Position numbers and translations under genes: made by a program
The notes under the pieces: generated by a model
Told to the model about the DNA's origin: nothing
Seen by the model: the letters and a program-made list of their open reading frames with translations, nothing else
The model's database searches: none
Source: Escherichia coli
GTDB lineage: Bacteria > Pseudomonadota > Gammaproteobacteria > Enterobacterales > Enterobacteriaceae
NCBI RefSeq assembly: GCF_013315695.1
Contig: NZ_CP054353.1
Reading direction: 5' to 3' (one strand)
DNA: 64,000 bases
Shown: in pieces, positions 13,745 to 58,430 of the stretch
How positions within the stretch are numbered: position 1 is the first letter of the stretch
How the letters are laid out: every line of letters starts with the position of its first letter

Positions 13745-13889
13745 ATACAGCGAACGCCATTGGTTTAGTTGGATATTTACTGTGCCGGACAAAAACGGTT
13801 TGCGGGGAAATCTTAGTTAAGTAGAATAACTGCGGGTGCTTGAGGCTATCTGTCTCAGGCATGAACACCAAAAGGCAGATAGAGAAAAG

Positions 13890-13953
13890 CCCCAGTTAAC
13901 ATTACGCGTCCTGCAAGACGCTTAACATTAATCTGAGGCCATATCTATGCGAC
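13890..13953 (-). ncRNA. Putative Sok-like antisense RNA of the hok locus (extent approximate)
   Basis: Reverse-strand promoter TTGACC, 18 nt, TAATCT (-35 at 13984-13989, -10 at 13960-13965) pointing across the mok-like start; 3' end not defined. Confidence 0.3.
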
Positions 13954-14006
13954 ACATAGAGATTAGCCTCTTACGGACCGAAAGGTCAAGGAGAAGCAGG
14001 CTATGA
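13947..14006 (+). CDS. mok-like leader ORF (19 codons) translationally coupled to hok
   Basis: ATG CGA CAC ... CTA TGA; its stop overlaps the hok ATG (cTATGAag). Confidence 0.35.
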   Translation: MRHIEISLLRTERSRRSRL

Positions 14007-17367: not shown

Positions 17368-17443
17368 GGCCCTTTAGCTCAGTGGTGAGAGCGAGCGACT
17401 CATAATCGCCAGGTCGCTGGTTCAAATCCAGCAAGGGCCACCA
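17368..17443 (+). tRNA. ileZ: Prophage tRNA with CAU anticodon, Ile2 (lysidine) type, ileZ-like
   Basis: GGCCCTTTAGCTCAGTGGTGAGAGCGAGCGACTCATAATCGCCAGGTCGCTGGTTCAAATCCAGCAAGGGCCACCA; close to host ileX in sequence. Confidence 0.85.
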
Positions 17444-17543
17444 TCACAAACCGCCATTAGCTTATCAGGAAGAGCAGACGACGCGATAACAGGGTTGTTG
17501 GTGCGGGGGCGGGTCCCCGATGGCGGTCCATTATCGGTATTCA

Positions 17544-17617
17544 GCGTTGTTAGCTCAGCCGGACAGAGCAATTGCCTTCTAAGCAATCGGTCACTGGTTC
17601 GAATCCAGTACAGCGCG
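17544..17617 (+). tRNA. Prophage tRNA-Arg (UCU), argO/argN-like
   Basis: Acceptor GCGTTGT/ACAGCGC, D-stem GCTC/GAGC, anticodon stem ATTGC/GCAAT with loop CTTCTAA, T-arm ACTGGTTCGAATCCAGT; no encoded CCA. Confidence 0.8.
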
Positions 17618-17730
17618 CTATATTCATTCTTCCAGATTCCTTCCGGCAGAGCCTTATACTGAAATATACCTGGCTCAGGATATTGTTGAAAATATTATAT
17701 GTTTGTCAAAAATAAAAGTTCTGTTAAGTA

Positions 17731-18084: not shown

Positions 18085-18531
18085 ATACATATCTGGATTA
18101 TCACTTGTTACGGTAAAAAGTGATTGCTTACTGTTTTTGTGAGTGGCATTGCAGCAGCCGGATAATGTCAGTGCTGGCTGACGGTGTGCTGGTGGCGGGT
18201 GTGGTGGTTGTTGCTTTCCCGTTGCTGAAAAAGAAAACGCCAGACTGTTAGCCGGGTATCAGTTAGCGGGAGAAATTTTTAAATACTTCACAATTCAGGC
18301 GGTTGACTGTTGTCTGGTTTGCGGGGAGTTTGTTAAAAGAAACTGGCATGGTGAATCCCCCTGTGCGGAGGGGCAATCAGCGAGTAGGTATATGGGATAA
18401 TCGCGGATTCAGGTGCTGGTACTGAATTCACCGGGAGGCACCCGGCACCATGCAATGGCACATAGCGCCACTCTCCAGCCCCTCTCCGGAGGGGCTGTTT
18501 ATATTGATTTTGTCAGATGTGAGTAAACTCC

Positions 18532-24728: not shown

Positions 24729-25055
24729 ATGAAAAGACGCCTTTTACTACTTTTTCTGTTATCTGTCCTGGCAGTGGGATGCTCGCAGCAAAAAGCTGAT
24801 GAGCCCCGGCAATTAGTGACGGTGTATCCACGATATCCGGAATATGCTGCAGCAAATTATATCAAGGGGCTGGTTGAGGTTAAGTTCGATATTGGTGCTG
24901 ATGGGACTGTGACACGGATCGTTTTTCTCCGCTCAGAGCCTCATAATTTGTTTCGTGATGAAGTGGTGAAGGCCATGGCGAAATGGCGATTTGAAAAGAA
25001 TCGCCCCTGTCAGGGAGTGAAGAGACAATTTATCTTTACGCCGTCACGTCCCTGA
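24729..25055 (+). CDS. Lipoprotein with TonB C-terminal-like domain, 108 aa
   Basis: MKRRLLLLFLLSVLAVGCSQ (lipobox) then VTVYPRYPEYAAANYIKGLVEVKFDIGADGTVTRIVFLRSEPHNLFRDEVVKAMAKWRFE; RBS AGGA. Confidence 0.65.
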   Translation: MKRRLLLLFLLSVLAVGCSQQKADEPRQLVTVYPRYPEYAAANYIKGLVEVKFDIGADGTVTRIVFLRSEPHNLFRDEVVKAMAKWRFEKNRPCQGVKRQFIFTPSRP

Positions 25056-25177: not shown

Positions 25178-25670
25178 TCATTTCTTCTTTTTCTCTGGTG
25201 GAACCCGATGAATAAGAGTTGCACTGGTTTCCGATGAGATGGCGATATACTCGGGCAAAGTATGCTGGCAGTTTTCCAACTGGTCAAAAATACCTGCTCT
25301 CGTCTGTTGCAATGCCTGCAGCATGCGGCGGCAATGCGCCTTGCTTTTACTAACCATCTTTCCTTCCTCTATCAGTCGCTGCGTGAACTCATCATGTAAT
25401 ACCAGGTAAATGCGGATGTTATCGGTTTTGGCTACGCAGCATAGTACAAAACGGACAGGTGCATCCCGGGACGGGGGAGGCGTCACATGTCCCTGTGATG
25501 GTTGTTCCGGGTAATGCACTGTGTGGGGCATAAAAATGTCCGATAATTTTACTTTCTACCGCAGTTAGTTGATTCGTTGGTCCTGGTAGCACATTGGGCG
25601 AGGATTTAAATGCCAGGCAACTGAAGGATGATGTTGCAAGGGAGATAGCGAGAATATTTCTGATTTTCAT
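25178..25670 (-). other. Reverse-strand coding region in two overlapping frames (25419-25670 with signal-peptide-like start MKIRNILAISLATSSFSCLA; 25178-25531); possible frameshifted gene or two overlapping genes
   Basis: Two ORFs of 84 and 117 aa overlap by 113 nt; function unknown. Confidence 0.35.
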
Positions 25671-25817
25671 TTGATGATGCCTCTGTGTGAAATGACGGTA
25701 AACGACGCACTTGTGCCGGCACATAATAGCAAGCACCATAATAGATCAGATTCGATTCTTGCTGTAAGTGATAATCATTCTCGTTTTCGGGTCCTTTCCG
25801 TCGATCCAACAGGTTAC

Positions 25818-25829
25818 GGGGCGGCGACC
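25818..25829. other. cosN cohesive-end site, lambda-type
   Basis: GGGCGGCGACCT followed by CGCGGGTTTTCGCTATTTATGAAAATTTTCCGG, matching the lambda left end as I recall it for about 45 nt. Confidence 0.8.
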
Positions 25830-25867
25830 TCGCGGGTTTTCGCTATTTATGAAAATTTTCCGGGAAC

Positions 25868-25966
25868 CATGTCCGGTTTCTCTTCAAGTTAACTATATGA
25901 AAAATAAAAAAAGAGGTCTTCTGTGAACCGGACATGCACAAAAAATAGACATGTAAGCCGGACATG
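25868..25966. repeat. Three copies of CCGGACATG (one inverted) in the cosB position, putative small-terminase binding sites
   Basis: catgtccgg 25868-25876 (inverted), ccggacatg 25928-25936 and 25958-25966, between cosN and Nu1. Confidence 0.45.
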
Positions 25967-26013
25967 ACCGGTTTTGTTGTGATTGTGAAGTGAGAGTTTT
26001 TGCGAGGTGAGGA

Positions 26014-26523
26014 GTGGCTACGCAGACTGAAGTTGCCAGGCATTTAAGTCTGACCGATCGCCAGCTTCGCAGATTGCAGAAATTGCCGGGTGCCCCGATA
26101 TCGAATAAGCGAGGGCAACTGGATCTGGATGCCTGGCGCGATTTTTACATATCGTATCTGAGAAGAAGTAAAAACGATGTGCCTGATGGCGATAGCGAAG
26201 ACGACTATGAGGAGAAATTGCTTATTGCCAGATGGGAACTGACAGCAGAACAGGCTGTTACACAGCAGTTAAAAAATGAGGTGTCAAAAGGAAAACTTAT
26301 TGACACCGGGTTCTGTATTTTTGCCCTCAGCAAGCTGGCAATGGCGTTATCCAGTACGCTTGATTCCATCCCTTTATCCATGCAGCGACAGTTTCCTGAT
26401 TTAACACCGCGCCATCTTGACCATCTGAAAACCCTTATTGCGAAGGGGGCAAATCAGTGTGCGCGGGCGGGGGATAAATTACCGGATTTACTCGATGAAT
26501 ATATCAGAGCAACAACTGAATAA
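26014..26523 (+). CDS. nu1: Terminase small subunit, Nu1-like
   Basis: GTG start; C-terminal half TGFCIFALSKLAMALSSTLDSIPLSMQRQFPDLTPRHLDHL... resembles lambda Nu1. Confidence 0.8.
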   Translation: MATQTEVARHLSLTDRQLRRLQKLPGAPISNKRGQLDLDAWRDFYISYLRRSKNDVPDGDSEDDYEEKLLIARWELTAEQAVTQQLKNEVSKGKLIDTGFCIFALSKLAMALSSTLDSIPLSMQRQFPDLTPRHLDHLKTLIAKGANQCARAGDKLPDLLDEYIRATTE

Positions 26524-28412
26524 TATGATGAGTGCTGTCACAACAGCATTACAGCCCCTGATAAGGGCATTGCCGGTGACGCCAGTTGAATGGGCTGATC
26601 AAAATTATTATCTGCCTAAAGAATCTTCATATGGTGAGGGAGAATGGAAAACGCTGCCGTTCCAGATCGCCATCATGAACAGCATGGGGAATGATCAGAT
26701 CCGGACTGTTAATCTGATTAAATCTGCCCGTGTTGGCTATACAAAGATGTTGCTGGGGGTGGTCGGGTATTTTATTGAGCATAAATCCCGAAACAGTCTG
26801 CTTTTTCAGCCCACGGATTCTGCCGCTGAAGATTTTATGAAGTCTCACGTGGAGGCGACGATTCGGGATGTGCCATGTCTGAAAGACCTTTCTCCATGGC
26901 TGGGGCGTAAACATCGTGACAATACTCTCACGCTGAAACGCTTTTCATCGGGTGTGGGCTTCTGGTGCCTGGGCGGCGCTGCCGCCAAAAACTACCGTGA
27001 AAAATCCGTGGACGTGGTCTGCTATGACGAACTTTCCTCGTTCGAACCGGATGTCGAAAAAGAGGGTTCGCCAACCCTGCTTGGGGATAAACGTATTGAG
27101 GGCTCTGTATGGCCCAAATCCATTCGCGGCTCGACGCCTAAAATCAAAGGCACCTGCCAGATCGAAAAAGCGGCCAACGAGTCGGCGCATTTCATGCGTT
27201 TTTATGTGCCCTGCCCGCACTGTGGGGAGGCGCAGTATCTGAAATTTGGCGATGAGTCCACGCCTTTTGGCCTTAAATGGGAGAAGGACAGCCCCGAAAG
27301 CGTTTTCTACCTCTGTGAACATCATGGCTGCGTGATCCATCAGTCTGAGCTTGACCAGAGCAACGGGCGGTGGATCTGTGAAAACACGGGGATGTGGACC
27401 CGCGACGGTCTGACGTTTTTCAGCGCTGCGGATAATGAAATTCCGCCGCCGCGCTCCATCACATTCCATATCTGGACGGCGTACAGTCCGTTCACCACCT
27501 GGGTACAGATTGTCTATGACTGGCTGGATGCACTGAAAGATCCCAACGGCCTGAAAACCTTTGTGAACACCACGCTGGGCGAGACCTGGGAAGAGGCCGT
27601 GGGCGAAAAACTCGATCACCAGGTGCTGATGGATAAGGTTGTGCGTTACACGGCTGCGGTGCCTTCCCGGGTGGTTTATCTGACGGCGGGCATTGACTCG
27701 CAGCGAAACCGTTTTGAGATGTATGTCTGGGGATGGGCTCCGGGAGAGGAAGCCTTTCTGGTGGATAAAATCATCATTATGGGGCGTCCCGATGAGGAAG
27801 AGACGCTGTTACGTGTGGATGTGGCGATCAACAAAAAATACCGCCATGCAGACGGAACCGAAATGACCATTTCCCGTGTCTGCTGGGACACCGGGGGGAA
27901 TTGTCTATCAGAGGTCAAAAAAACACGGTGTTTTCCGGGTGCTGCCGGTAAAAGGTGCATCTGTTTATGGCAAGCCGGTGATCACCATGCCAAAAACCCG
28001 CAATCAGCGGGGCGTGTATCTGTGCGAAGTGGGGACGGACACCGCAAAAGAAATTCTCTATGCCCGTATGAAAGCCGATCCCACGCCTGCGGATGAAGCC
28101 ACGTCGTATGCCATCCGTTTTCCTGATGATCCGGAGATTTTTTCGCAGACAGAGGCGCAGCAACTGGTGGCGGAAGAGCTTGTGGAGAAGTGGGAAAAAG
28201 GAAAGATGCGTCTGCTGTGGGATAACAAAAAGCGGCGTAACGAAGCGCTGGACTGCCTGGTGTATGCCTACGCGGCATTACGTGTGTCCGTGCAACGCTG
28301 GCAGCTTGATCTGGCTGTACTGGCAAAATCCCGGGAAGAAGAGACGACCCGGCCAACCCTTAAAGAACTGGCAGCGAAGCTGTCCGGAGGAGTGAATGGT
28401 TACAGTCGCTGA
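26495..28412 (+). pseudogene. A: Terminase large subunit gpA, interrupted by a +1 frameshift near 27893-27900
   Basis: N-terminal 466 aa (MNISEQQLNN...ISRVCWDTGG) and C-terminal 170 aa (...IVYQRSKKHGVFRVLPVKGASVYGKP...) both lambda-gpA-like but in different frames; junction at ccggggggaattg. Confidence 0.6.
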
Positions 28413-57801: not shown

Positions 57802-58430
57802 TATGTATTCCCTTGTGATTATAATCTTCATGAATATATCAATAAGTGCTGTTATCCAAAAAAAGCACATTTGGATACTATTCTATGAAGTTCATTTTAT
57901 TTTAAAGATTACATGTAACAAATGTATTTAAAAGATTTCAAAATGTTTCTAATCTATTTAATATAATTCATAGTTATGAATTCTGAATATAAATATTCAC
58001 GAATATTATGGATATATATCAATATGTTATGAGTTGATCGAAAAGATAGGGAGTATCAATGATTGTTGCGCTAAACGGCTGGTGTGATCTCGCGCACATT
58101 AATGAAGGCATAAAAAAAAGCCGGCATCATGCCGGCCCAAAAAAATATAAACAAGACGATAAAAGGCTAATAACGGAGGCATGATGACACAGAAAAATAA
58201 AAAGGTATAATTGTAATCAGTACCAATATATTGATTGAATGAATTAATAAAGCCGAAATCAAAGATAAATAACATCGTTCAAATCGATTTTTCCTGTATT
58301 CACCGCCGTTGCGCAAAATTTATCTATTTGTTCAAAAAATGATTGAGTCTTGACTGGCTCATCCAATGTGGAAAAATGTGACTTTTATCACATAATAGTT
58401 CTAAGTCTGAATTTTCCGGGTTATCTCAAA

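Follow-up and report, generated by a model that had tools for sequence, protein, structure and literature searches.

Which terminase is the packaging site of an Escherichia coli prophage built for, when its cohesive end is that of lambda and the repeats behind it are not? The stretch of E. coli DNA analysed here, 64,000 nt in length (hereafter the window), raises this question at positions 25789-26013, where a lambda-type cos runs up to the start of a gene for a Nu1-like small terminase subunit (TerS). We consider it highly probable that a lambda-like prophage has its cos site in this region, and that the repeats found there serve as R boxes in a cosB of the complex form that is read by TerS. 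Judging from the alignments, its cosQ and cosN are the versions common to lambda and phage 21, whereas its cosB belongs to neither of them. The coordinates of all features are collected in Table 1.

The 12-nt cohesive end, GGGCGGCGACCT, is the same as that of lambda at 12/12 positions and also equals that of phage 21, and it is present as a single copy in the window. The first-pass annotation, made from the letters without database searches, had matched this end and the next ~33 nt to the lambda left end, and alignment to lambda cos bears this out with 45 identical bp (bp 1-45 from the start of the cohesive end), beyond which the two sequences diverge. The cosQ heptamer, the packaging-termination signal, is likewise the same as in lambda and 21, and it is kept in all related loci. 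Its distance of 30 nt to cosN is equal to the lambda spacing, so that both marks of a lambda-like cos, identity of the 12-nt cohesive end and a cosQ at lambda spacing, are found in the sequence. Phage 21 (M81255) is 97% identical to window positions 25700-25866 by megablast, over a segment that includes cosQ and some sequence ahead of it and reaches bp 48, where the match ends.

What lies beyond this point is a set of repeats. Precisely three copies of the sequence CCGGACATG are present in the 64 kb, at 25868-25876 (-), 25928-25936 (+) and 25958-25966 (+). All lie downstream of cosN in a span of 99 bp, although only ~0.52 copies would be expected in the whole window; the three copies, one of them inverted, that had been described ahead of the Nu1-like gene are thus confirmed. 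A repeat search moreover returned the first two, R3 and R2, as a perfect 11-nt inverted repeat (CATGTCCGGTT / AACCGGACATG). The third is more intricate, as an exact CCGGACATG in the orientation of R2 (bp 140-148) overlaps CATGACCGGTTT in the orientation of R3, which makes the R1 of the window a composite palindrome. The latter sequence repeats the extended R3 box CATGTCCGGTTT in direct orientation at 11/12 positions, its core CATGACCGG at bp 145-153 having one mismatch, and it is probably this overlapping copy in R3 orientation that represents the functional R1.

With the first base of the cohesive end taken as bp 1, lambda carries R3 at 53-59 (+), R2 at 114-120 (-) and R1 at 155-161 (+), and the annotated records of phage 21 place these boxes at 53-60 (+), 112-119 (-) and 153-160 (+). 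In the window, R3 is found at 50-58 (+) as CATGTCCGG, R2 at 110-118 (-) as its exact inverted copy, and R1 at 145-153 (+). The orientations are those of lambda and 21, with R3 and R2 at most 4 bp, and R1 at most 10 bp, off the positions in these phages. Since order, orientation and positions of the boxes agree with lambda and 21, the cosB of the window would by its sequence be of the canonical R3-I1-R2-R1 architecture, the rule for a complex cosB established by Feiss and colleagues (PMC4669245, PMC9026076). The order R3-R2-R1, an inverted R2 and an R3 near bp 48-65 are all there, together with the extra inverted copy at 140-148. As such, the 'non-lambda cosB' of the first-pass annotation holds for the box sequences, which match no R box of lambda, 21 or N15, but not for the layout, which is the arrangement of lambda and 21.

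If the layout is so ordinary, what of the protein that is supposed to read it? RefSeq labels it plainly as 'terminase small subunit'. Residues 1-55 make up a winged-helix N-domain of the 'MATQ' type, and the C-terminal half is Nu1-like, with an identity over residues 73-164 of 46% to Nu1 and ~40% to gp1 of phage 21, while residues 1-72 show no BLASTP similarity to either, in line with the earlier suggestion of a Nu1-like protein with a non-lambda N-terminal half. Accordingly, Pfam Phage_Nu1 (PF07471), whose profile positions 1-164 are matched by lambda and 21, aligns to residues 49-150 only (profile 62-163, E 1e-18) and gives no full-length match, whereas PHROG 57 (small terminase) spans the whole of TerS. 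A search for homologous proteins with the 72-aa N-domain brought up nothing but pieces of this E. coli protein itself; an exhaustive HMMER search yielded 43 clusters of N-domain relatives with the conserved start 'MATQxE(V/I)AxHLxLSDRQ...', many of them with C-termini that are not Nu1-like. Comparison by hhalign with the N-domains of Nu1, gp1 and N15 gave a probability of 69.5% (E 4e-5), with residues 4-46 on Nu1 residues 5-51, and a MerR-like helix-turn-helix, a beta-wing and a third helix, resembling DNA-binding domains of TerS with solved structures, were recognised in a structure model and in fold searches. We therefore take the N-domain to be a remote homologue of that of Nu1, with the same predicted winged-helix fold and a recognition helix (DRQLRRLQKL) that differs nearly throughout.

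The box itself resembles a hybrid of lambda and 21, and appears to be a close variant of both. In the series lambda CGTTTCCG, window CATGTCCGG and phage 21 C(A/G)TGTCGG, the window shares CATGTC..GG with the latter, from whose CATGTCGG it differs by an extra C. Could the terminase of lambda, 21 or N15 then recognise these R boxes just as well, making them a variant without functional consequence? With only one inserted base separating the box from that of 21 and a few positions from that of lambda, the box itself speaks for this idea, and there is a precedent in N15 and lambda, where cross-packaging is asymmetric and N15 terminase packages lambda DNA. However, for lambda and 21 a difference between their boxes at two conserved bases suffices for a more than 1000-fold mutual exclusion, and the box of the window differs from the boxes of these phages at a comparable number of positions or more, besides being shifted by 2-3 bp towards cosN. 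Furthermore, the recognition helix has almost no residues in common with Nu1 or gp1. Because both helix and box differ, cross-recognition by the terminase of lambda, 21 or N15 is unlikely. For the same kind of reasons the identity of the site with any of these types was rejected: with that of lambda on account of the box, which is not of the lambda consensus CGTTTCC(G/T)T, and of the 72 N-terminal aa lacking a BLASTP match to Nu1; with that of phage 21 on account of the extra base, the divergence of the DNA after bp 48 (it is unalignable beyond that) and an N-domain unlike gp1, to which the 40% identity is confined to the C-terminal half; and with the N15/Monarch type because box and TerS both differ, N15 having GAGGTTGTTGTT as R3 and an N-domain of a different sequence type (MAVLLNKSDMASSLGISVQ...).

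That TerS reads the boxes is suggested by the way in which the two change together. Relatives were retrieved via the protein or via a DNA pattern at the start of the gene, ignoring the repeats, and each of those retrieved has its own matched pair of inverted boxes, with one member at the R3 position. Locus L087, with an N-domain that is 58% identical and the helix ERQLRRLQKL, carries R3 GATGTCCGG and the inverted partner CCGGACATG, behind the cosN of N15 (GGGCGGCGTCCG). Loci L089 and L140 (helix DRQLRNLQKQ) have R3 CATTTCCGG and the inverted partner CCGGAAATG, and in L104 (RQVYNL) both copies of the box are changed to TTCCTGTTC. In Aeromonas phage phiARM81ld (L097, KT898133; ERQINNLQKM), a linear-plasmid prophage, CATTTCCGG at bp 52-60 is accompanied by an exact inverted copy, AACCGGAAATG, at bp 251-261, under the assumption that the record, which opens with a cos-like GGGCG..., starts at the cohesive end.

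To this we added a table of ~80 distinct N-terminal variants from a scan of IMG/VR and from the earlier loci. Where the helix is 'DRQ.R.L'-like, a TTCCGGTT-type box immediately precedes the gene, in most cases with an inverted copy ~170-180 nt inside it, whereas nothing of this kind is seen in variants whose helices are unrelated (SVKRVSELIRDG, TPQSVSELVKKG); in the more distant relatives P0040 (L091) and P0045 (L093-L095) no clear box was found. The correlation can be narrowed down to a single residue. Arg is present at residue 20 in three variants only, those of the window, of L087 and of the otherwise distant L216, and these are also the only ones with a G before TCCGG (CATGTCCGG, GATGTCCGG and CGTGTCCGG, respectively), while in the ~33 variants where residue 20 is N, D, E, S or T, a T takes its place. 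This pattern points to a direct contact between Arg20 and the G.

The relatives moreover fall into two layouts. In phiARM81ld the inverted copy sits ~200 bp into the TerS gene, where it encodes a conserved peptide EPE(V/M), and the same combination of R3 and an in-gene copy is found in L100-L104 and in many IMG/VR contigs. N15 and Monarch show this arrangement too, their simple cosB being made up of R3 and a distant rR2 within the TerS gene, as put forward by Feiss for N15; here it appears in a lineage of TerS N-domains unrelated to theirs. The complex/simple split thus recurs within the TerS lineage of the window, with the window, L087 and L089 on the complex side, and phiARM81ld and the many contigs on the simple, N15-like side.

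Could the inverted pair of R3 and R2 instead be a nucleic-acid hairpin, in the leader of a late mRNA or as a DNA cruciform, with the concerted changes of its arms being compensatory? The minimum-free-energy RNA fold does pair R3 with R2, and the changes in both arms seen in L089 and L104 would be expected of a conserved stem as well. However, this fold is unexceptional (z = -1.41), since 16 of 200 shuffled sequences fold equally well, and in the simple-cos relatives the partner is ~170-200 nt away, within a coding region. A hairpin moreover leaves the third and fourth copies unexplained, as well as the way in which the box covaries with one residue in the helix of the neighbouring DNA-binding protein, and the homologous inverted boxes of lambda are established sites of gpNu1. 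We therefore regard a hairpin as very improbable, and return to the boxes as binding sites of TerS.

A conservation footprint was sought among close relatives, for which 80 IMG/VR loci with a near-identical TerS were combined with the window and phage PhiR12_1 into 36 distinct cos haplotypes, 32 of them gap-free. Among the latter, only 2/27 columns of the repeat cores are polymorphic, compared to 20/38 in the spacers (Fisher p = 1.4e-4), and the 12-nt cohesive end is unchanged throughout. When counted over the 79 loci that include cos, the exact box is kept in all 79 for R3, in 74 for R2, and in 76 for the third copy. The degenerate fourth copy varies, occurring as CGGACATGT (an 8/9 match), TGGACATGT, TAGACACTA, TGGGCATGT, TGTACAAAC and others across the haplotypes; it is probably free of constraint, and could be a box that is decaying or emerging.

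A few individual loci depart from these patterns. L015 (IMGVR_UViG_2675903621_000013) has a 30-bp deletion that merges R2 and R1 into one box, apparently through unequal crossing-over between the direct repeats, which makes it a natural instance of the proposed route to simple cosB forms. In L063 and L081, both from IMG/VR, ~60 nt of unrelated DNA take the place of what normally follows the third box, which reads CCGGACATA here, and L063 additionally has a cosN variant, GGGCGTCGACCT. L216 (IMG/VR) carries TGTCCG-TGTCCGG ~20-35 nt upstream of TerS, where simple-cos relatives have a tandem TTCCGG-TTCCGG, the T being changed to G in both half-repeats. Finally, metagenome contig L092 (P0043, a 'MATQ'-type TerS) has a short cos ~110 nt upstream of TerS with GGGTCCTT and CGCTATTTATGAG, and a lambda-like box GCGTTTCCAG (GCGTTTCC), with no R2 or R1 seen.

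How, then, might the site work? Between R3 and R2 lies an I1 block, TAACTATATG, that aligns with those of lambda and 21. This candidate binding site for integration host factor (IHF) agrees with the IHF consensus at 7/9 specified positions, equal to the verified I1 of lambda, within a stretch that is nearly invariant among the haplotypes. A bend at this AT-rich site would bring R3 and R2 together, so that two TerS subunits could dock on the inverted pair as a dimer of their N-terminal winged helix-turn-helix domains, with the composite R1 as an accessory site. The resulting complex of TerS and cosB would anchor the large terminase subunit (TerL) on cosN, where nicking at this lambda/21-type site would produce 12-nt cohesive ends identical to those of lambda. 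From conservation and from the covariation of helix and box, we infer that TerS positions TerL via the R boxes. The analysis shows the anatomy of the site, its conservation, the covariation and a predicted fold, whereas binding of TerS to the boxes, bending by IHF and a distinct specificity are inferred. Because the box CATGTCCGG and the helix DRQLRRLQKL are both unlike their counterparts in lambda, 21 and N15, initiation of packaging would be specific to this phage type, whereas termination at cosQ/cosN would be interchangeable with lambda and 21. Of the different small-terminase specificity that the first-pass annotation had proposed, the boxes and the N-domain unlike those of lambda, 21 and N15 are borne out, while the specificity itself is deduced from covariation.

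We must however take into account several points that weigh against this model. The correlation between Arg20 and G amounts to about two independent lineages, without phylogenetic correction, and its parallel with lambda is imperfect, as the genetics of lambda and 21 place residue 24, not 21, near bp 56. The footprint of R3 may partly reflect a shared constraint, given that conservation extends over everything between cosN and I1 and that the haplotypes are related. Furthermore, lambda tolerates shifts of R3 by 1-2 bp only, and that of the window is shifted by 2-3 bp. As for I1, searching with the IHF consensus WATCAANNNNTTR and two mismatches allowed returned 501 hits where 562 were expected, i.e. 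chance level, and the site is a candidate on the basis of its position and conservation. With regard to the N-domain, Foldseek with the structure model found no match at E < 0.1, and the scores of the fold searches are moderate. Lastly, the TerL gene of the window is frameshifted, and a prophage with such a TerL would not be able to cut its own cos, unless the deletion is a sequencing error. PhiR12_1 and ATCC 25922 have intact genes of 1929 nt, and compared with these the window lacks ATCGATGGCGA at 27898-27899, a deletion that shifts the frame after ~residue 468; it is present in 0 of 5,426 complete E. coli genomes, all of which have the extra 11 bp, with a best match of 96%. If real, it would leave the prophage in need of a helper phage of the same specificity.

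The type as such is common. At least 80% of window positions 25780-26530 is found in 1,147 of the 5,426 genomes, mostly at an identity of at least 99%. Among 50,697 deposited phage records the N-domain is present in only five E. coli phages, PhiR12_1 to PhiR12_5, whose TerS is identical to that of the window and which have the same three boxes. A full-text search of the open literature for the motif, the protein accession, cosB surveys and PhiR12 retrieved nothing on this type, and only work on lambda, 21, N15 and phage-inducible chromosomal islands (PICIs); packaging specificities have been studied genetically for lambda, 21 (the classical second one) and N15 (the third, together with the Monarch group) only. 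A common cos type thus seems never to have been studied, though it would be a further specificity class of a well-known system, with an ordinary mechanism and no surprise in it.

This distribution also bears on the question whether the repeats bind some other factor, such as a PICI redirecting protein of the Rpp type or a regulator of host or phage, or are merely neutral remnants in a decaying prophage. RppC is the top structural match of the TerS N-domain, and the PICI EcCICFT073 (Fillol-Salom 2019) resembles the window in combining a cosQ and cosN of the lambda type with a non-lambda cosB and a winged-helix domain of the same fold. Against this, a complete module of TerS, TerL (gpA-like), W-like (gpW) and portal (B-like) genes follows directly downstream, unlike in a PICI, no Rpp gene is involved, and PICI cosB has been described with an equivalent of R3 only, where the window has three boxes. 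More than 1,100 genomes moreover keep the boxes, as do isolated phages whose terminase is intact, and the boxes covary with the TerS helix. Binding of another factor, or neutral decay, has in our view hardly any chance of being correct, and a PICI cos was rejected because of the full terminase and head module and the three-box layout. An origin in the cryptic prophages of K-12 was rejected as well, since the cos sites of DLP12 and Qin, with NohD and NohA, are of the lambda type. With lambda itself, the window thus shares cosQ and its spacing, cosN, bp 13-45, the order, orientation and approximate positions of R3, R2 and R1, an AT-rich site that separates R3 from R2, genes like gpA, W and B downstream, and a Nu1-like C-terminal half of TerS; it differs in the box, in the position of R3, in a spacing between R2 and R1 that is longer in lambda, in the palindromic R1, and in a TerS N-domain without BLAST or Pfam similarity to Nu1.

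Table 1. Features of the cos region and its surroundings, in window coordinates; bp are counted from the first position of the cohesive end.
Feature	Position	Strand	Remarks
cosQ heptamer GGGTCCT	25789-25795	+	
cosN, 12-nt cohesive end	25819-25830	+	
Left end, bp 13-45	25831-25863	+	Identical to lambda; includes the segment for which phage 21 record M81255 gives IHF site I2
R3 box	25868-25879	+	Proposed primary TerS site; bp 50-61, core at bp 50-58
Candidate IHF site I1, TTTCATATAGTTA	25890-25902	-	Followed by an A-rich tract; positional homologue of the lambda/21 I1 block TAACTnnnnTG
R2 box	25926-25936	-	Perfect inverted copy of R3; bp 108-118, core at bp 110-118
Degenerate fourth copy, TAGACATGT	25946-25954	+	Between R2 and R1
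Composite R1	25958-25974	+	Exact repeat at 25958-25966, overlapping copy in R3 orientation at 25963-25974
TerS gene	26014-26523	+	169 aa, GTG start; RefSeq WP_000235436.1; same start annotated in ATCC 25922
TerL gene, gpA-like, frameshifted	26495-28412	+	11-bp deletion after ~27898
Moron-like small open reading frame	25419-25739	-	Signal-peptide-like start (MKIRNILAISLATSSFSCLA...); the phage 21 record has it too, at its start
Moron-like gene	24729-25055	+	TonB family protein according to the ATCC 25922 annotation
tRNA-Asn, tRNA-Ser(cga)	680-2914		Left end of the window, beside an integrase-sized open reading frame (1889-2914)
DicF RNA	6262-6313		
sok antitoxin RNA	13834-14005		
tRNA-Met, tRNA-Arg(tct)	17368-17618		Phage-borne
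STnc100 small RNA	18317-18506		
rseX	58113-58203		In the flanking chromosome

The two moron-like genes listed in Table 1 are both located between the lysis genes and cos.

Whether all of this adds up to a fourth packaging specificity, present in about one fifth of complete E. coli genomes, in which an N-domain of a separate and widespread 'MATQ' lineage, joined to a Nu1-type C-terminus, reads a hybrid box through a co-evolving code and shows an N15-like split into complex and simple forms, we consider evenly balanced. If true, it would offer a natural recognition code for the re-targeting of cos packaging, and the covariation of helix and box leads to testable predictions on how winged-helix domains read DNA. 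The occurrence of complex and simple cosB within one lineage backs the proposal of Feiss that the simple form arose from the complex one. Moreover, packaging specificity decides which DNA is loaded by a lambda-like phage or by a satellite that hijacks it, and as such affects cross-packaging and exclusion among prophages residing in the same cell.
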